38,350 nucleotides of DNA, taken from assembly GCA_963843795.1 (NCBI GenBank), contig CAWJLW010000004.1, forward strand, positions 62,001-100,350, written 5' to 3'. A model generated the notes under the pieces. That model searched no databases. It was not told where the DNA came from and was given only the letters and a program-made list of their open reading frames with translations. The DNA comes from an uncultured bacterium (lineage in GTDB: Bacteria > Armatimonadota > Abditibacteriia > Abditibacteriales > Abditibacteriaceae). The position numbers and the translations under genes are program-made. This document shows, one piece after another, positions 4,553 to 25,951 of the stretch (positions are counted from its first letter, which is position 1; every line of letters begins with the position of its first letter).

Positions 4553-5215
4553 TTATTGCGGCAGCAATTGCAACAGCCGTGGCGCGCGTGGCGGAAACAC
4601 CATGCCCAGACCGCTTTGAGTGTCCTGGCCCGGGGAGTCAGCATCGCGCAGCGCCACCATCGACTTCTCGCCGTTGCGATCCGAAAAGGTCAGCGTGTCA
4701 AACGTCATCGACAGCGACTCGAACGGCTTTTGCCCGATCCGGTGCGCGCATGAACCTTTGGCCACATACGCCAGCGTGAGGTGAGGCGCGTAAGAAGAAA
4801 AGGTTTCGCGATAAGGCAAATCTTGTGAGAGCAGAGCGTGCGCGGCGTGGAGTTTGGCCCCGTGCACGCGCACGACCAGCACATCATAGTCGGGATGAGT
4901 GTGAAACAGGTGCAGCGCGCCCAGTCGCACCCGAATTGCCCCGAAATGGCCCATCACCCGCGCGACACTCGCACTGTCATCGACCAGCAGACCATATTTG
5001 ACCGTGATGTGCGGATCGGTTTCGATGCCGTTATCGCGCAAGTACTGGGCGGCCACATGATTGCGCGTCCAATCGAGCACGGTTTGCGCCGCTTGCGCGG
5101 GCAAGTCGAGCTGTGTGGAGCACGATTCGTATTGGTAAGCTGTGAGCGCTTTGGCAATGCCTGTCGATACAACCACTTTCAATTGTTTCATGGTCCCCGC
5201 CCCTTCCAGTTCCAT
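4553..5215 (-). CDS. 2H phosphoesterase (2'-5' RNA ligase / Acb1-like superfamily)
   Basis: Two HxT motifs about 75 aa apart: PHITVKYG and YAPHLTLAYV. Confidence 0.8.
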   Translation of the reverse strand: MELEGAGTMKQLKVVVSTGIAKALTAYQYESCSTQLDLPAQAAQTVLDWTRNHVAAQYLRDNGIETDPHITVKYGLLVDDSASVARVMGHFGAIRVRLGALHLFHTHPDYDVLVVRVHGAKLHAAHALLSQDLPYRETFSSYAPHLTLAYVAKGSCAHRIGQKPFESLSMTFDTLTFSDRNGEKSMVALRDADSPGQDTQSGLGMVFPPRAPRLLQLLPQ

Positions 5216-8982: not shown

Positions 8983-9017
8983 AAAAAAAACGCCGCTGCA
9001 AGTACTTGCAGCGGCGT
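8983..9017 (-). terminator. Intrinsic terminator built on the CTGCAAGTACTTGCAG palindrome
   Basis: Perfect palindrome ACGCCGCTGCAAGTACTTGCAGCGGCGT (8990-9017) followed by a T-run on the minus strand, downstream of the endolysin. Confidence 0.7.
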
Positions 9018-9988: not shown

Positions 9989-10063
9989 CTGAGAAGGCTG
10001 GATTCGAACCAGCATAAATTCGACTTTTGCCGTCGAAGGCTTTACCAATTAAGCTACCTCCCA
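9989..10063 (-). tRNA. tRNA-like element with an abnormal anticodon loop (possible pseudo-tRNA, Cys-like GCA)
   Basis: Cloverleaf read by eye: acceptor TGGGAGG/CTTCTCA, D arm GCTT-AATTGGTA-AAGC, anticodon arm TTCGA-CGGCAAAAG-TCGAA, T arm GCTGG-TTCGAAT-CCAGC. It lacks U33 and has no encoded CCA. Confidence 0.6.
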
Positions 10064-11547: not shown

Positions 11548-14500
11548 TTAGTCCGGGCGCACGACTTTACTCATCCAGTCATCATCGACCACCGAACTCG
11601 CCGTCATCACACCCGCAAAGCGCTTGATTCCCGTCACCGAAGCGTCCACCGCGTCATCTTTATTCGACAGGGGAAACGTCAGCAATTGCCCGAGCCACTG
11701 GCGCGTTAGATAGTCATCAATTGATACCAGTCGCACCGAGCGTCCTTTACAAAAACTCAGCACGCTTTTGGCGTTTGCTTCTTTTTTCAAACCGACTGGT
11801 GCAAAGGGCAGCGGATGAAAGGGCGGTGCCTGCACAACAGTTTGCCACTCGTCCTCGGTCCAGCCGACCGGCGTTTTCCAGTCGAAAGCTTCGGGCTGAT
11901 GACCAGCGCCGAGATGCTTTTGATATTCGATTTCGCGCGCGCGCCGATGCGCGCCCAGACGACGCGAGTATTGCACAACCGCGGTGGCATTTGAAGCGCC
12001 CTCTTCGATGGGCGAACCCTGCAACGCCGCGCCCACGCGCACGCGCCACTCCGCCCAGGTCAGGAGCACTTTTTTCTCGACTTCGGGCACTTCCATCTTC
12101 TCCAGGACCAGCGGCACCAAGTAGACGTAACCGTCCTCGGCCATCGCCACCAGACAGCCCGCCGAGTTGTCGTTTTTGGCTCCGGCTTTGGCGGCTGTAT
12201 CCCAGCACAAATAGGCTTCGATCAAGTTCTGGCCAAAAACGAGGGACTTGTCCCAGAAGGTTTTGCCTTCGGGATCGGGACAGAACATTTCGGCCTTGAA
12301 CATATTGCCCTGCATCGGCGTGGGCCGTTGCTGGTGCTGTCCCACAAAGTCTTCCTGCAACTGTTCTTCGGCTTCATCGAGGGCTTCTTGATTGAAGAAC
12401 TGCGGAAACAACAGCTCGCGCTCGGTCGTGCGCGGATCACGACCATACTGGGCGTATTTTGGATAGTTGACCAGACAGGTTTGAAAGGCGTGCTCCGGCT
12501 CAAAATACGAGGGCAAGCACACATGCTCGTAAGGAATGACCTTGTTTTTTAGAGACGTGCGCCGCTGGATCGTCACAGTTGTGCGCAGTGATCAGATTGC
12601 ACACGAAATCATGGCAGGGTGTTTCGATGTCATATACCGACCCCTCGTAAAAATCGACTTCGATACTCTTGATCTTGACCAGAAGCCGGTTGCCGTCGAT
12701 CTGATTTTGCTGCGCTCGTTTGAAAACAGGGGTTTTCGCTGTTGTTGGATCAATCCAAGGAGCTTCAAATGAGCGCAAACGAAGCTCCCATGAAACGCGT
12801 CCTTTCACATATTGTCCGGCGTTTACACCTGATTGAATCACCGACACGCACGGCTTTTTGCGAACAGCCATCACGGACGCCACGATTCCCAAGCGCAAAA
12901 GCGCGCGCTGAACCCCCGACAGCAAATCCAGAGAAGAAGATGCGATGCGCCAATTACCTTTGGTATCCAAGCAGCCATCGCCGCGCCAATAGCCGATAAT
13001 GAGTTGCTGCAAAAATTCTTTGGGTAGACAAATCGCCCACTCAGGCAGCGACTTATGGTTTGCGCCAACCCCAAACTGCTCCAAGAATTGTGCAATTTGC
13101 CAGGAAGCAAAAGAAACTTGTAATGCTCCCGGGGCCTTGGAGATGCACAAAGGAATTTCGTATTGAGCAAGAATTGATTTCAAGTCCTCGACGAAATCGG
13201 TTTCTTTGTCGGAAAAAGTCAGGCGCACTCGGTCATGCACGCCGCGCCGCCCCTTGCCTAAACACCCTTCAGCCAACCAATAGCCGACCAATCGCCAAAA
13301 ATTGGGATTCGTGACAGCAGAAGCTGTCACGAAGCGCGCGGTGCGACGCGACAAACCATAAGCCGCGACATAATTATCAATCGACTGGCGGTTTTTGAAA
13401 CCGTAAATTTCAGCGATTTCACGACTGCTTTTTCCTTGTCCCAGCCACCGAACTAACTCGTCTTTGGGCACACGTCCCCGAGAGCCGGAAACCCGATGAA
13501 TTTTCTTAGGTGGAGACGAATCTGGCAGAGCGGGCCACAATCGAAGCAACTCAGCGCACGAAGTTTCGCCTTGGGGTAACGGATACACCAATGTATCTCC
13601 GACTTTTAAATCTTTGCCTTCTTTCCAACCCTCTGTGGTCAGCAGACGATGCTCTGGAGTAATACCTAAACTTTCGGAATGTCCAAAAGTTTTGATGTGA
13701 AGCACATCGCCAGAATGATCATGTACCCAGCGATTACGAACCGTTTGCACTCCCGCTGAAGTCAAGACATCATCGCCAACGCAAATTTCATCTGCCCTTA
13801 TCGTTCCCATTGCAGTATTTATTTTACTGCTGGGAAGCAGACAATGCAAGCGCTGCATGATCATCACAATCGCGCCAGTTTGGGGATTGGCCAGACGCGA
13901 AGCAGCGGCTTTACTCACCCAGCGGTTGGCCTCTTCGCGCTTGAGTTCGCTGGTGGCATCCATCACTTGTAAAGCGTCATCGATGGCGACGACATTCCCA
14001 CGAAAGCCAGTCGTCGCGGCCCCAACCGAAACCGCGCGCCGCATCCCGGTTGCCGAATTGGTGTAGAACTGCTTGGCGTTGGTGTCGGTGCGAATCTTCC
14101 AATCGGGCTTGAAGGTGTCCTGATACCACTGGCTCATCACCAGGTCTTTACATTTGCCCGAGTCGCGGATCGCCAGACCCAAACCCGAACTGGCGCACAG
14201 CATGCGCCAGTTCGGCAGATGCAGCCAGACCCACGCGGGCCACATCACCGACACCAGCATCGACTTGGCATGACCAGGCGGGACGTTTATCAAAAGCCGA
14301 CGAATCAAACCTTCGCTAACCGCTTCGAGATGCGCGCAAATGCAGTCGATGTGCCAGTTCCAGGTGAGCGGTGTGCCCGGTTCAAGCTCCTCCCACGCCC
14401 CGCGCACGAAGTCTGTCAGCGAGATGATCGGGTTTTCAAAGGGATTGAATTCGGGCAGGATGCCAGCAGCGGCATCGGCGGCGGCTTTTTCCAGGCGGGC

Positions 14501-14698
14501 TTGCTCAATGCGCTCTTCAGCGCGCATTTGCTCTTCGGCTTCAATTTGCAACAATTTCGATCTGAGGGCACGCGACGATACCACGATGCGGCGCGGCCTC
14601 TGACGCATCTCTAGAGATGTTTCCGGTTTCGTAATGCCGATTTCAGCTTCAGTCGGAGATGAATTGTTCGAGGAGGATTTCAAACCACTCTTTACCAT
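11548..14698 (-). CDS. terL: Terminase large subunit with intein; +1 frameshift at ~12553
   Basis: Walker A INVPPGHAKS, Walker B VAIDD and the IMQRLH motif. The nuclease domain (CWDTAAK...KDDAVDA) is in ORF 11548..12576. Removing one base gives ...AHVLKNKVIPYEHVCLP. Confidence 0.9.
12578..13843 (-). mobile_element. Intein (422 aa) with LAGLIDADG homing endonuclease in terL
   Basis: N-terminal CLLPSS, block B ITPEHRLL, LAGLIDADG motifs LVGYWLAEG and IIGYWRGDG, C-terminal VYDIET...AHN followed by Cys+1. It interrupts QRLH|CDD and is visibly more AT-rich than its flanks. Confidence 0.93.
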
Positions 14699-16558: not shown

Positions 16559-17285
16559 TTGCTGTGAAGGTAGTTGTTGTGAAGGTCGTTGTTGCGGAGC
16601 CGAAGTGGGTGACGAAGTGGGTGATAGTGGACGCGGGTAAAATAGTGGACACGATTCATTCCTTCAATTGCAGGATGAATCTCATTTTGTTGAATGCTGT
16701 GGCAGCTGGCAAACTCAATTGCGGATCGTGAGCAGTTCAAAAGCGAAACGTTAGCGTTGCAGAGCGATTTTTTTTTGCTGGCGCAATTGGCTCACCGAGG
16801 GGCGCAAAACGTGGCGCGCGATCAGGCGCGCGGCCAGAGGCGAAAAATGCTGGGGTTCCACATCGTCCAGAGGCGTGACCAGCTTTTGCGTCGAAGGCTC
16901 GACAGCGCAACGCCAACTGCGCACGACGCACCGCATCATAGGAAACAGAAAGGGCTTGAGCGATCTCACACAAAGTGAACACGCTCTCGCTATCGGGAAA
17001 GCATTTTTGCAACGCGCCCAACTGATCGGCATTGACCGGCATTGGCATTGGTCATGGCGTTGTAGTTTAACAATTGAAAGGCGCACGATTATGCCACATT
17101 CGATCAAAAGCTACCACCCGATTTATCGACGAACCCGTCAAACCACTAAGACATAAAGGCCAATGTTCACCTTGAGATTAAGCTGCACAGAATAAGGATA
17201 CTCTGTAGCATAGACCGGAAAAGTTTACAAAGAACCGCCAAATACCTTGACGGATGACCTCACTTGTACGGATGACCTCAGTTGT

Positions 17286-17300
17286 CTTGTTGTGCCGGTG
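17286..17300 (-). repeat. Truncated attC (R'' only) ending the TA cassette
   Basis: Minus-strand CACCGGCACAACAAG. Its reverse complement GTTGTGCCGGTG matches the cassette start GTTCTGCCGGTG (17914-17925) at 11 of 12 positions. Confidence 0.65.
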
Positions 17301-17317
17301 TAGGTATTTCGCGCTGC

Positions 17318-17662
17318 TCATATCGGAATGTGCGACTGTAAAAGATGAATGACCGCATTGGCAACTTTACGAAACGAATCGTCTTTAAGCTTGCCGATTT
17401 GAGTGACCATCAGACTCTGATTTGCCGTGAAGATTTTGCCTGGACGTGCGTAGCTAGTGAGGTGCAAAGAACCGCTGACAAAATCCTCGTCCTCAATCTG
17501 AACGGCACTTATATCCGAATAGGATTTGCTCGTTAGCTGACACAATATCCAATCGCCGCGACCGGAATCCGCTAGGACGATGGCCGGACGCAATTTAGAA
17601 CTCGATAAATCCGAGAAGGGAAACAAAACAGTGACGACTACGCCTGCTGAAGGTGTGACCAC
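17318..17662 (-). CDS. PemK/MazF family toxin
   Basis: VLFPFSDLSSSKLRPAIVL...ILCQLTS signature. Confidence 0.9.
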   Translation of the reverse strand: MVTPSAGVVVTVLFPFSDLSSSKLRPAIVLADSGRGDWILCQLTSKSYSDISAVQIEDEDFVSGSLHLTSYARPGKIFTANQSLMVTQIGKLKDDSFRKVANAVIHLLQSHIPI

Positions 17663-17853
17663 GCTTCATCCTCCTCAGGCCGATTCCAATCTGCGGCGAG
17701 GGCCACTTCACTCAGTAAGGCTGTTTCCGTTTTGTCTGTTGCCGGTTGCTCCAATATCGTCACAAGAGCGCGACGCGCAGAAGGAAGGTGTACTTCCTCC
17801 AATAGGCTGACACTGCCGTTTTCGTCAATCAAGGCTTCAATTGTTTGTATCAT
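17638..17853 (-). CDS. Antitoxin partner of the PemK/MazF toxin
   Basis: 71 aa, MIQTIEALIDENGSV...LLSEVALAADWNRPEEDEAWSHL. AGGAGG RBS and an extended -10 (TGgTAAAAT) upstream; overlaps the toxin start. Confidence 0.8.
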   Translation of the reverse strand: MIQTIEALIDENGSVSLLEEVHLPSARRALVTILEQPATDKTETALLSEVALAADWNRPEEDEAWSHLQQA

Positions 17854-17918
17854 CGGTGGCCTCCTGCACCATATTTTACCATTTCGGCGTTTTGGTGACA
17901 CGAAAGCCACGCGCACCG

Positions 17919-18014
17919 GCAGAACACAGTATCTCACCCGCCGCCGGAAGCGGAATGAGTGAAGTGAGGAACGAACGAAACGAATGGAGCTGTAGGCGGT
18001 CGGGTGCAGCGCCT
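17919..18014 (-). repeat. attC site (main part), interrupted by IS110; its R'' end lies at 19318-19326
   Basis: With the IS removed, the minus strand reads GCAGTAACAAGGCGCTGCACCCGACCGCC...GGCGGCGGGTGAGATACTGTGTTCTGC, a typical attC fold with extrahelical bases. Confidence 0.8.
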
Positions 18015-18029
18015 CATAGGTTAACTATG

Positions 18030-18200
18030 GCTTGGCATCAGCAACGGGAGAGAGCACGATGCAGCGCCAGAAGCGATCGACCTTCGATTGACTTCGCGAA
18101 CAAGAGGATGCGCCCGTTGCCGGTGACTATTTATCTCGAACAGTCTCTGGAAACCAGCTCTAATCGAAGAACACGCTGAGATTTCGACTGAGTGAGGGAG
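18030..18200 (+). ncRNA. Bridge RNA of the IS110 element (boundaries approximate)
   Basis: Target loop: TGCAGCGCC (18060-68) and AACAAG (18099-104) flank an inner hairpin and are closed by GCAACGGG/CCCGTTGC. Donor loop: ACAGTCTCT (18140-48), identical to the right end at 19309-17, and TGAG (18189-92). Confidence 0.8.
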
Positions 18201-18206
18201 CAGAAT

Positions 18207-19253
18207 ATGGACACCACGTCGCCTCAATTAAGCACCTGCTATTGTCGCACCCGTCGTTACCGCACCTGCCTCTATCTCCGCTGTTCCCATCGGACTTGAT
18301 GTCAGCAAAGACACGCTCGATGTCTGTTTGCTGGTAAGCGGCAAGCGCCATGAAAAACAGTTTGCCAACGAGGCTGCTGGTCATCGCCAGCTTCTGCGTT
18401 GGTCACAAGGCCTGGCCAAGAACCAACCCTGCCACTTTTGTCTCGAAGCCACCGGCCCGTATTCGCAAGAGGTCGCGTTGTTTTTGGTCGAGAAAGAGCA
18501 AAAGGTGAGTGTGATCAATCCGGCTCGCATCCGCTTCTTTGGACTGGCGCAGAATCAGGGCAACAAGACCGACAAAGCCGATGCACGATTGATCGCTCAT
18601 TATTGCCAGATGCAAAGCCCACCGCCGTGGCGTGTTGCTGCACCCGAAGTGCGCTTGTTGCAGGAGATGGTGCGTCGGCTTCATGCACTGAGTGACTTAG
18701 CGGCACAGGAGAAGAATCGTTCTCAAGTGCCCGGGCAAAGCAAAGCTGTTGCGGCCAGCAGCAAACGGGTGGTGGCAGCCTTGGAAAAGGAACTGTTGCG
18801 TTTGAAGCGCGAAGTGCGCGCTCATGTCAAAGCTCACGCGGAGTTAGGGCGCGATGCCAAGCTGTTGCAAAGCATTCCGGGCATCGGCGAGATCACCTCA
18901 TGGGACGTTCTGGCCGAGATGCCGGATGTGACGGAGTTTGACAGCGCCCAAAGTGCAGCGGCTTATGCGGATTGGCTCCACGCGAGCAAAGATCGGGCAG
19001 CAGTGTGAGAAAAGCGACCACGCTATCGAAGCGTGGCAATCGTCGTTTGCGCAAAGCGTTTTACTTCCCTGCGGTGACTGCGATGCAATGGAATCCCCTG
19101 GTCAAAGCGCACTACGAACGAATGAGGGAAAAGGGCAAGCCCAAGATGGTGGCTTTGGCGGCGTGTATGCGAAAGATGTTGATGATCTGCTACGGAGTGC
19201 TCAAACACCAGAAACCTTTCGATCCATCTTGGTCGAACGTAGCCGAAACTTAG
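18207..19253 (+). CDS. IS110 DEDD recombinase/transposase; frameshifts at ~18231 and ~18970
   Basis: IGLDVSK, CLEATG, KTDKADA, SIPGIG, AAYAGLAPREQRSGSS and KRGNRRLRKA; GAGGGAG RBS. Confidence 0.92.
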
Positions 19254-19338
19254 TATAAGAGACAAAATAACAGGCACAAAAAAACGCCAAGGGACACCCC
19301 TTGACGACACAGTCTCTTGTTACTGCGGTTGTTAGAGT

Positions 19339-19635: not shown

Positions 19636-19743
19636 CGCAGCATCGGCCTACTCAACTTTAGCTGCCGCCAACAGCGGCCAGAAATTGAATGGAGCAAGCG
19701 AAGTGAGATATCGCTGTTGGCGGTCAGATAAACGCTTTTTTGC
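19636..19743 (-). repeat. Degenerate attC site
   Basis: Hairpin CTGACCGCCAACAGCG...CGCTGTTGGCGGCAG; a direct-repeat homolog of 19865-19964. Confidence 0.6.
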
Positions 19744-19864
19744 TCTATATTTTTTTGAAGCGTAAGATACATCAGTGTCTAACAAGAGTTGAAGAAGGTG
19801 TAATTGTTTCAAGTTATCGTCGTGGCCAGGTGTGAATTTGACGAATATTAAAGAAAGTATCTGA

Positions 19865-19964
19865 CGCACATCGCTAACTCTACTGTGAAACAGGGCCAGA
19901 AAGTGAATGGAACAAGTGAAGTGAATACCGCTGTTGGCGGTCAGATACAACGCTTTGTTGTGCG
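19865..19964 (-). repeat. attC site (degenerate 3' arm)
   Basis: CGCACAAC-AAAGCGTTGTATCTGACCGCC... The R'' CGCACAAC is the exact complement of the cassette start GTTGTGCG at 20088-20095. Confidence 0.65.
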
Positions 19965-20088
19965 CTGATTAACGTTTGCGGTGAGAATCCGATCGAACTA
20001 TTTGAACGGTGAGTGCGAGCAAGCTTGGCAGTGTGCAAGTACCTGCGCCGCGCAATTTGAACAGAATTACCAAACGAAATTATAGGAC

Positions 20089-20195
20089 GCACAACGCTAA
20101 GTCCCGCCGCTGGAAGCGCCGAGACCGAGAAGGCGAGTGAACGAGCGAAACGGCGGCGCTGTTAGGCGGTCGGGTGCAGCGCCTTGTTCGTGTGG
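20089..20195 (-). repeat. attC site (empty copy of the IS110 target)
   Basis: CCACACGAAC-AAGGCGCTGCACCCGACCGCC...GCGGCGGGACTTAGCGTTGTGC; shares AGGCGGTCGGGTGCAGCGCCT with 17994-18014. Confidence 0.75.
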
Positions 20196-20585: not shown

Positions 20586-20612
20586 CCACACAACTACTTA
20601 TTATACGTGTTT
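20586..20612 (-). promoter_or_regulatory. attI-like entry site of the array, with an overlapping TATAAT
   Basis: Minus strand AAACACGTATAATAAGTA-GTTGTGTGG. GTTGTGTGG complements the R'' of the first attC apart from one extra base, and no attC hairpin precedes it. Confidence 0.5.
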
Positions 20613-20773
20613 TGCGGCATTTAATATCAAGCCGAAGCGCGAGCAAAAGAACATACATATTATCAGGAAAAATTTTCCTCATAACTCGATAATTAACGTA
20701 TTATTTCAAGACTATAATAGCCTGCGCATGGCTCGCAAAACCTTGAATTTGGCGTCGATGGACGCCTTATTTA

Positions 20774-21776
20774 TCAAATTTCCACATCAATAAAGTTGGC
20801 CGGATTGTTCTTGGCGCGCGAGACGGCTTTGACATACACACCGGTGGTTTCGATGCTCGCGTGCCCCATCGCATCGCGCAAGTGCTCGACTTTGGCTCCA
20901 CCGGCGACCGCTAAGCGTGCCAAAGGTATGGCGCAGCGCATGGCAGCTCACACCAGCCCGCTTCAAGGCGCTTTCGTTGAGATAGCGGTCGATGACCCAG
21001 TTCAAACCGCGACGACTCAAACGCTGTCCCAGCGTTTCGCGGCTGTGCGATAAAAACAAAGCCCCCGACAGCGGCAGACCCGTTTCGAGCTTGGTCGCGC
21101 TGTAATTCTGGATCGCCGCGTAGGTGTCGGGCCGCAGATAAACGCGCCGCATGCGATTGCCTTTGCCGTGCACCGTCAGAAACGCCGCTTCGCCTTCTTC
21201 GTGCGACAAGCTTTCATGATCCAAACGATGGACTTCGATGCGGCGCAGACCGTGCACCGCCATCAAAGCGATCATCGCGCGGTCGCGCGCGCCGCTGGGC
21301 GTGCCCACAGGCACCGCAGCGACCAGCGCGGTCAAACCATGTGTGGTGAGCGCTTTGATTTTCTCTTCGGGCGGCGTCAAGTCTTTGCCACCGCGCACGC
21401 GTTGGGCGGGATTGACTTCGATCAGACCGTGTTTGACTGCCGCTTCGTAAAAGCGGCGCACGATGCTCAAACGCTTGGCGCGTGTGGAAACGCTCTGCCC
21501 GCGCGCTTTCATTTCTTCGCGATAAGCTTCGATATCGCGCCGCTTGGCGAGCTGCGGGTTCACACCGCGCGCCTCGCACCAGCTGCTAAAGGTCGTGACT
21601 TCTTGCAGGTAACTTTGCACCGTGTCATCGGTCGCATCACCATTGGCCACGTCGATCTCCAAGAACTGCGCGAAGGCTTCTTGAATTGTCGTCACCGGCA
21701 CATCCAACCAGTCAAGCGATTCCAACAGCTCCTCTTCGGCAAGTAACTTGCAGCGCCGTTTCGTCAGGTTTTTCAC
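20774..21776 (-). CDS. XerC/D-like tyrosine recombinase; +1 frameshift at ~20914
   Basis: SAM-like N-domain, GLRRIE, GKG and HALRH. After frame correction it continues AMGHASIETTGVY...IDVEI*. There is no IntI-specific insertion between GKG and HxxR. The start overlaps the repA stop. Confidence 0.9.
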
Positions 21777-23203
21777 TGAACATCTTTGGCTTCCTCATGG
21801 CTGGCTCCTTCATGGCTGGCTCCCTCTTCGCTTTGGCTGACTGACTGGCTTTCCAGACTCGCCAGAACTTCTTGCACTTGATCTTCGTATTCGCGCTCAA
21901 CGATCTCCCATAATGTCATTGAAATCGGGCTATCGAGATGATCCAAGCGCTCCCAAAAAATCGACGCCACATCGCGTCGTGCTTCAGTGACCATAACTTC
22001 GCGATCTTCTTCTTCCAACCCCAGATAAACCGCGTGACACGCGCGCGCGATTTGCGCGCGCTCCGACTGAGTTGAAGCGGGTTGATTGGCTACCCCGCTG
22101 GCTAAAACGCTCGTGCTAACGCTGGTATCGGGGCGAATCGTCGATTTTTCGGGAGTGGCTTCTGTGGGCAGTGCGAACTTCTCCGCAGGCGAGGGGAAAA
22201 TGTAAATCACATTTTCGCCACCGGTCCGTGCGGTCTCATATTCGACCGCGCGCAGATAACCGCCTTCGATCAGCTCGGTGTGAGCCGCCGCCAACCGATG
22301 TTTGTAAGTGGACAGATGCGGCTTGGCAGTGAGGGCGAGATACTCCTCGCAGAGCTTGCGAAGGCCAATGCGATAGCGCGGTTTGCCATCGTAGCGCACC
22401 AAATCCAAAAAGCGAAACAAGCGGCGCGCAATCGGCAATTTCAACGAAAAATAAAAGCTCAGCGAGATCGGCTTCAAATTGCCTTCGCGAAAACTTTTCC
22501 ACAGGGTTTCGCTCCACACGAAGCGCGACAAGGGCAGTTCGTTATCGGCACTTTTGCGGCGTCCGGGCTTGGAAACAATTTCAAAAGACTCAATCAAGTG
22601 AAAGCCGGTGTTGATGAATGCACCCGCCGTCGCATCCCAGAACACATTTTTGGACTGAATCGTGATCGCATGCAAGCGATTGAACACTTCTTCCAATCGG
22701 CGATAATCGGCCCGACTGCTCGACCAGCCCAAACGCTTCAAAATATCCAACTGCGTAAAATAAACCTCTTGAGGAAAACCCAGCTCGCGCGACAATTCCA
22801 ACAACACCAAAACCACCGCATCATCGGTTGGTGTCGGCAAGCCCCACTCTTCACTGCCCAGCACCTTCCACGTCGCGACGATAGTTTTTTTGCTGATCGG
22901 ATGACGGCGCTCGCGGGTCTGCGAGATAGTTTTGCCGTGCTGAACCTGATGCGAAAGCAGGGCAATGGGATAGACCGCTAAATTGCGCTCATCACGACTG
23001 ATGCGCTCGATTTCAGCGGCTTCGCCCGTTGCAGTGCTCTCGGGAGAAGCGCCCTCGGGAGAAGTGCTCTCGGTTGCAGTCTCCTCGTGAGCAGCAGCTT
23101 CGGGAGCAGCAGCTTTGGGAGCAGCAGCTTTGGGAGCAGCAGCCTCAGTTGCAGTCCTTTGGGGAGACGTGCCATCGGTAGAAGTTTCTGTTGTCAAATT
23201 CAT
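21773..23203 (-). CDS. repA: Plasmid replication initiator protein (RepA/RPA family)
   Basis: RDERNLAVYPIALL, WGLPTPTDDAV and FYFSLKLPIARRLFRFLD; adjacent to iterons and parAB. Confidence 0.85.
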   Translation of the reverse strand: MNLTTETSTDGTSPQRTATEAAAPKAAAPKAAAPEAAAHEETATESTSPEGASPESTATGEAAEIERISRDERNLAVYPIALLSHQVQHGKTISQTRERRHPISKKTIVATWKVLGSEEWGLPTPTDDAVVLVLLELSRELGFPQEVYFTQLDILKRLGWSSSRADYRRLEEVFNRLHAITIQSKNVFWDATAGAFINTGFHLIESFEIVSKPGRRKSADNELPLSRFVWSETLWKSFREGNLKPISLSFYFSLKLPIARRLFRFLDLVRYDGKPRYRIGLRKLCEEYLALTAKPHLSTYKHRLAAAHTELIEGGYLRAVEYETARTGGENVIYIFPSPAEKFALPTEATPEKSTIRPDTSVSTSVLASGVANQPASTQSERAQIARACHAVYLGLEEEDREVMVTEARRDVASIFWERLDHLDSPISMTLWEIVEREYEDQVQEVLASLESQSVSQSEEGASHEGASHEEAKDVQ

Positions 23204-23249
23204 AAAAAAAGAACCTGGGCCGTGTCGTGATTTTTTTGGGCGCCGCAAG

Positions 23250-23641
23250 TAGTTAAAGTACTTTTTATATAGTTAGTTACAGTACTGTTACCGAAGCCGA
23301 AAAAGGCCGATAGCGCTAAGCGGGCGTGAAAATTTGACGCGGGTATTTTCGTAACTCCCCGAATTGTTTTTCGTAACTCCCCGAATTTCCCCTTGAATTT
23401 TTTCGTAACTCCCCGAATTGTTTTTCGTAACTCCCCGAATTTCGTGCTCAAAAATTTTCGTAACTCCCCGAATTTCGTGCTCACGATTTTCGTAACTCCC
23501 CGAATTTCGCGGAAATTTGAGCGTGCCTGAGGGTCTTTGTCGAGTGAAATCCATAAAATTGTGCGAGAATTCAGATCATCGTCAGTGCATTGCGCAGTCG
23601 TCACAGCCCAAAAATCATGGAAATTCGGGGAGTTACGAAAA
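23250..23641. repeat. Iteron-type replication origin
   Basis: Six direct copies of TTTTCGTAACTCCCCGAATT start at 23346, 23368, 23400, 23422, 23455 and 23487 (spacings 22/32/22/33/32, helically phased). One inverted copy at 23622-23641; AT-rich tract at ~23250-23290. Confidence 0.9.
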
Positions 23642-23754
23642 TCAGGCTCTTCCATCGAAATCCTCGTTCAGGGCGCTTTCGATTGTCATTTTCTTCCGCA
23701 ATTGTACGGGTTTCTTTTCAGACATCCAACGAAACCCATACAATTGCGGAAGTT

Positions 23755-24036
23755 TCATTCACTCTCCAAAGCAGTCTCGATACTGTGTTCGATGCGTATC
23801 AACAGTTCGCTTTCGGTCGCGCGCGCACGGCGAATGCGCTCGATTTCGGTTGCGACGGCTTTGGCATAAGCGGGTGTGATCTGGACATCGTTTTCCAGGG
23901 TTTGGGCGATTTCACTCAGCGCTTCACTGGTATTGTGGCGTTCGATCTCGCGCACCAGGGTTTGCAACGCCGCTGTGGGAAAGACTTCGCTCACTGCGTT
24001 GCTCTCTGCATTTTGGTCTGGTCGCACTGCTTTCAC
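23755..24036 (-). CDS. Hypothetical helical protein downstream of parB
   Basis: 93-aa ORF at the end of the par operon. Confidence 0.5.
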   Translation of the reverse strand: MKAVRPDQNAESNAVSEVFPTAALQTLVREIERHNTSEALSEIAQTLENDVQITPAYAKAVATEIERIRRARATESELLIRIEHSIETALESE

Positions 24037-24057
24037 TGGGCCCGTTAGGGTTTCCCG

Positions 24058-25208
24058 TTAGGAAGCTTTCCCCTTTTTGGCTTCGCCATTTTGCTGGCTT
24101 TGTTGATTCTGCTGTTCCAGACGGCGCGCGTATTCGGTGATCTGATCGCCCGACCAGTTCTTCTCCAACGCGCGTTTGGCCAGAGCGCGCTGATCTTTGG
24201 CGCCGCTCACGCTGGCAATCGCGCGCGCCTGACGCGCGCTGAGCTTGTCCCGGCTGTCCGCGCCAGCGGGCGCGATCTGTTCGATCACATCGGAGGGCAG
24301 CTTGGCGATGTCGATGTAATACATCAGCGTGCGCTTGGACAAGTGCAGACGCTCGCTCACATCCTCCCAGCGCACGCGCGGCTTGCGGCCTGAGGCGTGC
24401 GCGTGCGCGAAAATCGCGGCCATCCACGGCGTGAGCTTGGGAGGATCCTTGAAGTAGCCACTGGACAGCGCGCCCGATTTCTGGCAAGCCTTCGCCACGC
24501 ACCGCGCGCTCGTTTTGCGCATCGACTTGATCGATGGCTTTTTGCATCTGCTCTTTGAGGTTGACCAGAGCCAGACCCACGTCCCCGGGATGGGGATTCT
24601 GGCGTTGCAGGTTTTCGGTGACGGAGATTTCGGCGGCTTCAACATCACTCATGCGACGCTCGATAGCGGGCACGATCTCGTGTCCGGCGTTTTGGGCAGC
24701 GCGCAAGCGGCGATAACCGGCGACCAGCTCGTGAGTTTGAATGCCTTTGGTCTGGGCCAGTGGTCGCACCAGGAGCGGCTCTAAAATGCCGTGCTCTTGC
24801 ACACTGGCGTTGATCTCTTGCTGGGCGCTTTCGTCAAAGATGCTGCGCCCATAAATCTGGTTCAGTTGCAATTGCTCGATATGGAGCCAGATGGCATTTA
24901 AATTCGCCTGCGCGCCATCGCTGCGCACGCGCGCTCCCGAAGCAGTACGCGGTCTGACCCGAAGTCGGGTGACCCGAAGTGGGATGACCCGAAGTGGAGT
25001 GATCTGAAACTGAGTTGCTCGTTACCTCGAATAGGGGAGATGGTGAGGGCGCAGGTGCATCTGCGCCTGCAGTTGATTTCAAACCGACGACTTCTTGAGC
25101 ACGTTGCAGGGCTTGGGCTTGTTCGCCAGTGTTTTGGACGCGGGCACGGCGCGCGCTGATACCATCTTTGATGCGCTGGCTGCGCGATTGGGCGGCTTTA
25201 AGTGTCAT
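24058..25208 (-). CDS. parB: ParB partition protein; frameshifts at ~24935 and ~24470
   Basis: SVQEHGILEPLLVRP, LVAGYRRLRAA, ENLQR and an HTH (WEDVSERLHLSKRTL). The ATG overlaps the parA stop. Confidence 0.85.
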
Positions 25209-25951
25209 GAGAAAATTTCCTCTGCTAAGTTTTGAAAGTCGTCGCGCGCGCCCGCGCACGCGCGCTCCACAACAGTTTTTTGATCCAGTGCCAGTTCGCG
25301 CAGCCTTTCGGTAAAGCGAATTTGCGTGGTCAGCACATCGCTGCCCCAGGTTTGGCGACAAAGCTCGGCGATCTCACGTCCGTGATTGGTATCGCGGTAA
25401 GCGGTCAGCAAGATGCGCACGCGCGGGGCTTCGACTTCGTAAGCATCGCACAACTGAGCGATCCGCTCAGTTGTATCCAGCGCCGTATCAAACGCCATCT
25501 TCTCGCCATTAATGGGAATGATGACCAGCTGCGACGCCAAGACAGAGTTATGGGCCACTGCACCCCAGCCACTGGGCACATCCACAATAGTCGTCGTCTT
25601 TTTTGAGGGTGGCCACATCTTCATGGCACGCCGCAAACGCAGATCGGCACCCACTACAGAAGGCAACAAATGATCGGCATCGACCATGCGCGGATCGCTG
25701 GCGACCAAATGCAGCTGCGGGCGCACCGGTATTGCCGCATCGGTGAGCGAGCAGCCAGCAAACAACACGTCGTGAATAGTGGGCGCACCCGAAAATTCTC
25801 CTTCGACCAGAAAAAAATTGGTCGCCGAATACTGGCCATCAGCATCAATCAACAGCACCTCGCGCTCAGTGCTCGCCAGCGTGGCGGCCAGGTTGACCGC
25901 GCTGATCGTTTTACCAACGCCGCCCTTGGAATTGAGAAAAGAAATCACCAT
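25205..25951 (-). CDS. parA: ParA partition ATPase
   Basis: KGGVGKT deviant Walker A, LLIDADGQ and IVDVP. Confidence 0.93.
   Translation of the reverse strand: MVISFLNSKGGVGKTISAVNLAATLASTEREVLLIDADGQYSATNFFLVEGEFSGAPTIHDVLFAGCSLTDAAIPVRPQLHLVASDPRMVDADHLLPSVVGADLRLRRAMKMWPPSKKTTTIVDVPSGWGAVAHNSVLASQLVIIPINGEKMAFDTALDTTERIAQLCDAYEVEAPRVRILLTAYRDTNHGREIAELCRQTWGSDVLTTQIRFTERLRELALDQKTVVERACAGARDDFQNLAEEIFS

Follow-up and report, generated by a model that had tools for sequence, protein, structure and literature searches.

An IS110-group insertion sequence with a predicted left-end bridge RNA matching the R''-L'' spacer of integron attC sites in an Abditibacteriaceae genome

The window, a 38,350-nucleotide stretch forming the end of the 100-kb contig G000:C4, contains an IS110-group (IS621-like) insertion sequence, here named IS-A (18015..19315, plus strand), which interrupts the R''-L'' spacer of an integron attC site. 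Comparison of guides, targets and donors among its relatives makes it very probable that IS-A represents an IS110-group bridge recombinase with a left-end RNA directed at the R''-L'' spacer in an attC family that is common in the host family.

IS-A is present as a single copy in the genome, and its boundaries are identical in its relatives. The CT cores that the earlier note placed at its two ends were found there (18013..18014 on the left and 19316..19317 on the right, plus strand), and most relatives likewise carry CT at both ends. The right donor CATAG (18015..18019) and the left donor ACAGTCT (19309..19315), both on the plus strand, were identified by string search and guide comparison. 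The non-coding ends differ in length, with 192 nt on the left, up to an ATG at 18207, and 62 nt on the right. The DEDD/Tnp recombinase gene (18207..19253, plus strand) is frameshifted, but the D-E-D-D codons (18298, 18445, 18571 and 18580) and the serine codon at 18993 are present, and its product scored over the cut-off for PF01548, PF02371 and NF033542 in a profile search. The closest solved structures are those of IS621 and ISCro4, which matched equally well (E 3e-60). The putative halves of a circle-junction promoter lie at opposite ends of the element: a -35 box TTGACG (19301..19306, plus strand), found as TTGACA or TTGACG in 37 of 42 elements, and a -10 region (18021..18027, plus strand) that reads TTAACT at 17 nt or TAACTA at 18 nt. 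A TAnnnT box at the 18-nt spacing occurs in 32 of the 42 elements, and the window copy is without its last T. Sub-terminal inverted repeats of 11-13 bp were not found in IS-A, the best candidate, of 8 nt including one mismatch, lying 16 nt from one end and 24 nt from the other. By the criteria given in the available portions of PMC11187229 and PMC11208160, the left-hand position of the long non-coding end, together with the absence of these repeats, places IS-A in the IS110 group; membership of IS1111 was rejected, with the guides lying upstream of the gene.

Two short cassette arrays map to G000:C4, both on the minus strand and each headed by an attI-like site. In the window array, the left part of the attC split by IS-A (17919..18014, minus strand), recognized from a fold of the restored site, includes the R' box AAC (17923-25 on the plus strand), L', the loop and L''. 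The left target TGCAGCGC (18005..18012, plus strand) corresponds to the L'' box plus spacer, and the right target TGTT (19318..19321, plus strand) contains the R'' box (GTT on the plus strand); the box names follow the usual nomenclature. The fold of the restored site pairs AAC with GTT and leaves a T and a C unpaired, although its folding energy is not in excess of that of shuffled sequences (z -0.25). The AAC/GTT definition of attC boxes and the T-N6-C type are described in the part of PMC3053210 that was available. An unoccupied attC of the same family was found at 20088..20192 (minus strand) by string search and fold, and it contains the restored target at 20175-88, as the earlier note had observed. 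Two more attC-like sites, partly decayed, were recognized by sequence and fold between them (about 19652-19740 and 19872-19964; 19652..19964, minus strand). The empty 14-nt target has four exact copies in the 4.3-Mb genome, every one of them in an attC on G000:C4.

A 20-nt piece of this attC is present in 19 of 27 genomes of the host family, and the reversed control in none of the 27. IntI was detected over the cut-off in all five of the chosen genomes with IS-A relatives. In contig G266:C29, intI is followed by attI, two empty attC sites and a third attC that an IS-A relative occupies, again at the same base; this orientation to intI confirms the reading of the occupied arm as R''-L'', the target that the earlier note had named.

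Four guide segments were assigned in the left end. The left target guide TGCAGCGCC (18060..18068, plus strand) is identical to the left target, as originally noted, and is supported by string search, relatives and shuffles. For the right target, the string CGAACAAG (18097-104) is present as described, but an 8-nt guide did not hold up: its last two bases do not follow the target across relatives (11/38 matches vs 9.2 shuffled), and the right target guide is therefore limited to AACAAG, 6 nt including the core (18099..18104, plus strand). The string ACAGTCTCT at 18140-48, identical to the right end of the element itself, was confirmed, and within it the left donor guide is ACAGTCTC (18140..18147, plus strand). 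The TGAG at 18189-92, previously taken as the right donor guide, is present, yet the guide uses a second TGAG (18193-96) within CT-(GA bulge)-GTGAG (18188..18196, plus strand), which pairs discontiguously with CT-CATAG through one G:T wobble. Dinucleotide shuffling of the left end, repeated 20,000 times, produced the left-target 9-mer in 20 cases, the left-donor 9-mer in 12, AACAAG in 1,038 and TGAG in 16,896, so that the two 9-mers are far beyond chance and TGAG alone is not; all four together never arose.

Site preference was examined in 28 close relatives (at least 62% identity to P0002, window copy included). The left junction is in the same attC arm in 21 of the 23 with a readable left flank, and the right junction is TGTT in 22 of 24; the exceptions are L048 and two elements, L055 and L058, whose left guides changed together with their targets. 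The earlier note had proposed that homologous copies in unrelated targets with the same guides would speak against programming; instead, close relatives keep both the site and the guides. A sister clade with about 50% identity, whose named members are from Planctomycetota, inserts at GCAGCGN-CT-GGTT, and there AACCAG replaces AACAAG.

Guide/target covariation in homologues, another expectation of the earlier note, was borne out. A total of 47 elements went into the parsing, which failed for L121; the duplicates L057 and L086 were removed. Each comparison used 40-44 elements and was set against shuffles that ignore kinship among elements. The left target guide matched the DNA at 298 of 344 positions (277.6 shuffled), the right target guide at 156 of 160 (136 shuffled), and the left donor guide at 266 of 280 (182 shuffled), with the mis-parsed L113 included in the last count. 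The covariation of the right target reflects one change between the two clades, with no signal within either clade. For the right donor, the 5-mer count (202/220 vs 193 shuffled) is partly circular, because the search pattern contains TGA. The right donor dinucleotide, however, fits donor positions 4-5 at all 88 bases compared (58.5 shuffled) through four states, CT, AG, AT and AC, each matching its own donor, which places the right donor guide at 18188-18196. A further 38 more distant elements carry other guides and other targets that match them, with run sums of 250 and 210 against 123 and 135. A strict test for a whole attC was passed at 16 of 34 loci; the failures include several attC sites that have decayed or been interrupted by other elements, as well as about six guide-matching sites that, judged by eye, have no attC arms. 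In L055, L075, L130 and L131 the left target pairs in a register that falls short of the guide by one base, which may point to tolerance of a bulge beside the core. Viral contigs contained six distant relatives and no more.

The bridge RNA is predicted at 18030..18209 (plus strand, both ends predicted), with a target loop followed by a donor loop; the target loop is closed by 18036-48/18113-25, and the predicted 3' end overlaps the ribosome-binding site and start codon. The left-end RNA and its IS621-like layout, as first proposed, are both upheld in homologues: on 17 left ends, 96.5% of the cells of the two-loop structure are paired and 18 of 37 pairs show changes on both sides, with 0 of 500 shuffles as high and slid controls at no more than 43% paired. 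The structure was drawn by hand from the same 17 left ends, and the controls consequently lean in its favour. Support for it rests on covariation, since the single-sequence fold of the left end is no more stable than its shuffles (z -0.89). Unconstrained RNAalifold recovered the same outer target stem and the donor stems, missed the inner target stem and drew parts of the guides into invariant helices, so that the placement of the four segments in internal loops agrees with the covariation structure and not with that fold. Single-sequence and RNAalifold folds alone were rejected as proof of this placement, as not all guides lie in loops. A separate 5' stem-loop before the target loop, of the IS621 type, was not seen in the folds, in which the 5' end of the RNA is a predicted one. 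At the gathering score, Rfam detected a tRNA alone over the window, without a match to a bridge-RNA model.

These features are compatible with the following sequence of events. IS-A would excise as a circle whose joined ends form a sigma-70-type promoter, as expected from IS621 and from the conserved promoter halves. The left-end RNA would fold into its target and donor loops, as the covariation indicates, the former reading TGCAGCGC-CT-TGTT and the latter ACAGTCT-CT-CATAG according to comparative pairing, and the DEDD/Ser recombinase would presumably join target and donor at CT. Because the guides fix the orientation, IS-A lands antisense to the cassette genes. Insertion parts R'' from L'' by 1.3 kb, and the split attC should consequently no longer fold for IntI; a GTT in the left end of the IS is 4 nt too far out to serve as a replacement, suggesting that attC function is lost.

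The right end contains an intrinsic-terminator-like hairpin with a T tail (19277..19306, minus strand), whose stem includes the -35 box. Among close relatives, 23 of 24 have it, with changes on both sides of the stem, compared with 0 of 28 elements of the Planctomycetota clade, 0 of 7 of the IS-B lineage described below and 5 of 63 other elements, as called by a loose ad hoc rule that 41 of 480 shuffles also pass. As the hairpin faces the array transcript, it should stop transcription and silence the cassettes beyond IS-A, and it could also shield the element's own RNA from antisense transcription. Beyond IS-A in the array direction is a cassette (17289..17925, minus strand) with a small ORF and a PemK/MazF-like gene, identified by profile matches; it is probably a toxin-antitoxin cassette, the antitoxin role being suggested by position. 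The conservation of the hairpin counts in favour of the proposal that IS-A disables cassettes.

Alternatively, insertion could be a benign and reversible hitch-hike, ending in clean excision or in composite cassettes without cassette loss. According to the available part of PMC13626964, IS621 excises in E. coli and restores its target, and the flanking attC sites could still excise two cassettes and the IS as one unit. The same text, however, reports that IS621 excises less efficiently than it inserts and that excision requires transcription to run through the element, and here the array promoter faces the opposite way. Moreover, a dead 52-nt right-end remnant of an IS-A relative persists at the same base, at CT-TGTT on the far boundary of the IS-B-bearing array (G000:C4:47002-47052). 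A harmless passage through the array is thus considered somewhat unlikely, and disabled cassettes are the preferred outcome.

Recognition of the folded attC hairpin itself, with RNA pairing providing part of the specificity, is an unlikely explanation, slightly more so than reversible insertion. Most copies do sit in attC hairpins, and a target stem-loop is an extra determinant for ISPpu10 in the part of 10.64898/2026.03.19.712850 that was available. Of the one-mismatch target sites in the genome, 17 of 23 are a palindromic repeat, GCTGCAAGTACTTGCAGC, that matches the left guide and is unoccupied; these repeats nevertheless mismatch the right guide. In addition, L058, L072, L075, L076, L088 and L130 occupy guide-matching sites that by eye are without attC arms, and L130 and L131, two copies of a single element, differ in that just one of them lies in an attC. 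The programmed RNA consequently remains the preferred determinant of the site. The palindromic repeat is abundant, at 8985, 15957, 30715 and 35441 in the window and at many sites on contig C6, many copies fully matching the left target guide but not the right one, and none carrying IS-A.

In the window copy, the first frameshift lies between the ATG and about 18232 and the second in a G run near 18967-68, with the ATG, the DEDD domain and the C-terminal part in different frames. These two frameshifts indicate that this copy is probably non-autonomous. Intact relatives exist: stop-free frames of at least 340 aa were found in 13 of the 13 relatives checked, others, such as L121, being broken. 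In L041, L045, L053 and L084, for instance, these frames span 342-391 aa. The breaks could also be assembly errors in an element that is intact in the cell. One of them is in a short G run in which a relative's contig has one more G, and all motifs, ends and guides are kept; yet the first break is outside any obvious run, the -10 box likewise deviates from what is usual in the clade, and a rough check revealed no widespread frame errors, with breaks in 4 of 34 proteins, two of them IS-A and one a tandem pair. Assembly error is therefore a doubtful account, and a decayed copy is preferred. That the matches between the left end and the flanks arose by chance or as remnants of target duplication is barely credible: the unremarkable single-sequence fold and the frequency of TGAG would allow it, but none of the 20,000 shuffles held all four segments and the guides change with targets and donors across clades, a covariation that refutes this reading.

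A second lineage, IS-B, is represented on the same contig by an intact IS110 element (G000:C4:47686-48946; L001, L031) with about 42% identity to IS-A. It occupies the L' box of the same attC family in the other array, its guides match, and its donor, ACAGTAT-CT-TGTAT, is of the IS621 type. Six relatives of IS-B were found at the same L' position, and L044 has IS-A-type and IS-B-type elements in one attC. In quick trees (42 rows, LG+G4), a single clade for IS-A, the Planctomycetota clade and IS-B was rejected (p-AU 6e-4), also when non-attC rows nested in IS-B were included (p-AU 3e-5); one origin for the IS-A and Planctomycetota clades was compatible with the data without being demonstrated (p-AU 0.234). 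L015, L020 and L023 fall inside the IS-B clade and have changed guides and non-attC targets, suggesting that they were retargeted away from attC.

The right end of IS-B carries AAC 7 nt before the core, which is a native spacing (AAC-ACAGTAT-CT), and rebuilds the R' box of attC. Mimicry of R' as an evolved trait was rejected; 63 of 126 right ends have AAC there, with non-attC targeters among them, and it is thus regarded as a pre-adaptation. The attC split by IS-A in the window contains what looks like an IS-B donor-end scar, ACAGTAT-CT (17926..17934, plus strand), a 7-nt ACAGTAT spacer without IS-B that replaces the native spacer and is joined to the cassette end between AA and C. In a comparison of 36 attC bodies, the nearest to it was the one occupied by IS-B, and two 12-mers are common to these two alone; their identity stops between AA and C, where a typical cassette end follows. 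This point is the IntI crossover. The ACAGTAT string occurs at 11 sites, eight with an IS-B tail and three without (the window, the ambiguous L223 and the variant L059); with one clear case, the evidence is thin, and a chance deletion instead of IntI reuse is a tenable origin of the scar.

With a little less than even confidence, we propose that one attC family was colonized independently by IS-A, acting as lock and silencer, and by IS-B, which would keep cassettes mobile and leave a 7-nt scar through IntI reuse. Opposite effects of the two elements are predicted on the same attC site and, if this is true, bridge recombinases would restrain integrons as well as write new attC sequence. At three other loci, attC sites of the same family are interrupted deeper inside: in L046 (1-137) and L054 (1-183) the ends resemble IS1111-type right ends with guide-like segments, and in L051 (2700-2983) another IS110-family gene lies upstream. 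This attC family thus appears to be used at different bases by at least three or four lineages.

The original papers on IS1111 elements at attC are reportedly those of Tetu and Holmes in 2008 and of Post and Hall in 2009. As described in the available part of PMC11187229, IS-A resembles that group (ISKpn4, ISPst6, ISPa21 and ISPa25) in being an RNA-guided DEDD element at a fixed position in one attC end; according to the same description, it is set apart by lacking both the sub-terminal repeats and the long non-coding region with guide RNA downstream. With IS621 and ISCro4 (PMC11208160; PDB 8wt6, 9t56) it shares the DEDD and Tnp domains, a long left end, the CT core, the order of target loop and donor loop, a putative junction promoter and a similar left donor, and with IS621 also the discontiguous right donor pairing, as described in the accessible portion of PMC11208160. 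Differences from IS621 and ISCro4 are the natural target, an attC spacer, the donor ACAGTCT-CT-CATAG, the conserved antisense-facing terminator-like hairpin in the right end and the hosts, which are Abditibacteriaceae-like, with a sister clade in Planctomycetota. ISPpu10 is likewise an IS110 element aimed at a repeated intergenic hairpin in the available text of 10.64898/2026.03.19.712850, but its target is not attC, and some IS-A relatives are without a hairpin target.

Bridge-RNA chemistry and attC insertion (by IS1111) were already known, and attC is reached here from a different branch. Targets reading ...CTTGTTA... presumably represent the attC R'' end. Many unlabelled 31-nt targets in Supplementary Data 2 of PMC11208160 (Extended Data Fig. 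5d), as far as that source was available, contain this motif; one 8-mer has 38 matches in the list, and two targets contain GCAGCGCCTTGTT. Their centre is the GT of GTT, which places them 3 nt away from the CT core of IS-A, and the main text, in its available portion, names neither attC nor integrons outside the references. These unlabelled attC-like targets lower the novelty of left-end-bridge IS110 elements at attC. In the literature searched, with subscription papers mostly outside it and the following sources covered in part, attC targeting is described for IS1111 members only (PMC11187229, PMC11208160, PMC9229058, PMC11089894, 10.64898/2026.10.21.760802); integron, attC and cassette had no match in 10.64898/2026.08.14.744561. 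Added here are the corrected right donor guide, the clade-specific terminator-like hairpin and the contrast with IS-B. The findings imply that not IS1111 alone but also the IS110 (left-end RNA) branch acquired attC targeting, the latter on more than one occasion. The naturally occurring guide, target and donor variants, some of them in intact elements, also offer material for working out bridge-RNA rules, including those of the discontiguous right donor guide. According to the part of 10.1101/2024.02.09.579496 that was available, there is limited experimental evidence for what attC-targeting insertion sequences do to integron function and to the expression of cassettes, and IS-A and IS-B make this effect directly testable.

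The contig is probably a plasmid or phage-plasmid, given its profile matches to ParA/ParB, RepA, an XerC/D-like recombinase and terminase. IntI was not detected over the cut-off in the whole genome (4.3 Mb, 92% complete; profile search), and cassette locking would consequently be without a current partner here. The tyrosine recombinase at 20787-21776 was rejected as IntI (28.8 bits vs a cut-off of 265), as was the open frame beyond the attI-like site as intI, with no match to the intI loci of relatives. The attI-like site heading the window array (20588..20625, minus strand) resembles the intI-adjoining sites in L206-L210 and is itself without an adjoining intI. The attI-like heads at window 20588-20790 and G000:C4:51350-51590 are 71% alike, neither adjoining intI, and a third possible head was seen on C6 near 2099110-2099146. 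At the end of the window array (17240-17290), CCTTGACG and a short duplication precede a CT-TGTT-like point; this is possibly a decayed IS end, and comparison with the IS ends of relatives gave no significant match.

Window 20787-25951 encodes an XerC/D-like recombinase, ParA, ParB and RepA, the last with iteron-like repeats (23346-23508), and terminase and Rep O matches lie elsewhere, as in a phage-plasmid-like replicon that carries cassette arrays. On the minus strand of the window are a 732-aa ORF with an intein and a LAGLIDADG domain (12500-14698), a tRNA gene (9989-10063) and a 2H-phosphoesterase weakly matching the anti-CBASS protein Acb1 (4553-5215). A third, distant IS110 element interrupts another transposase gene at G000:C6:72200-73300.
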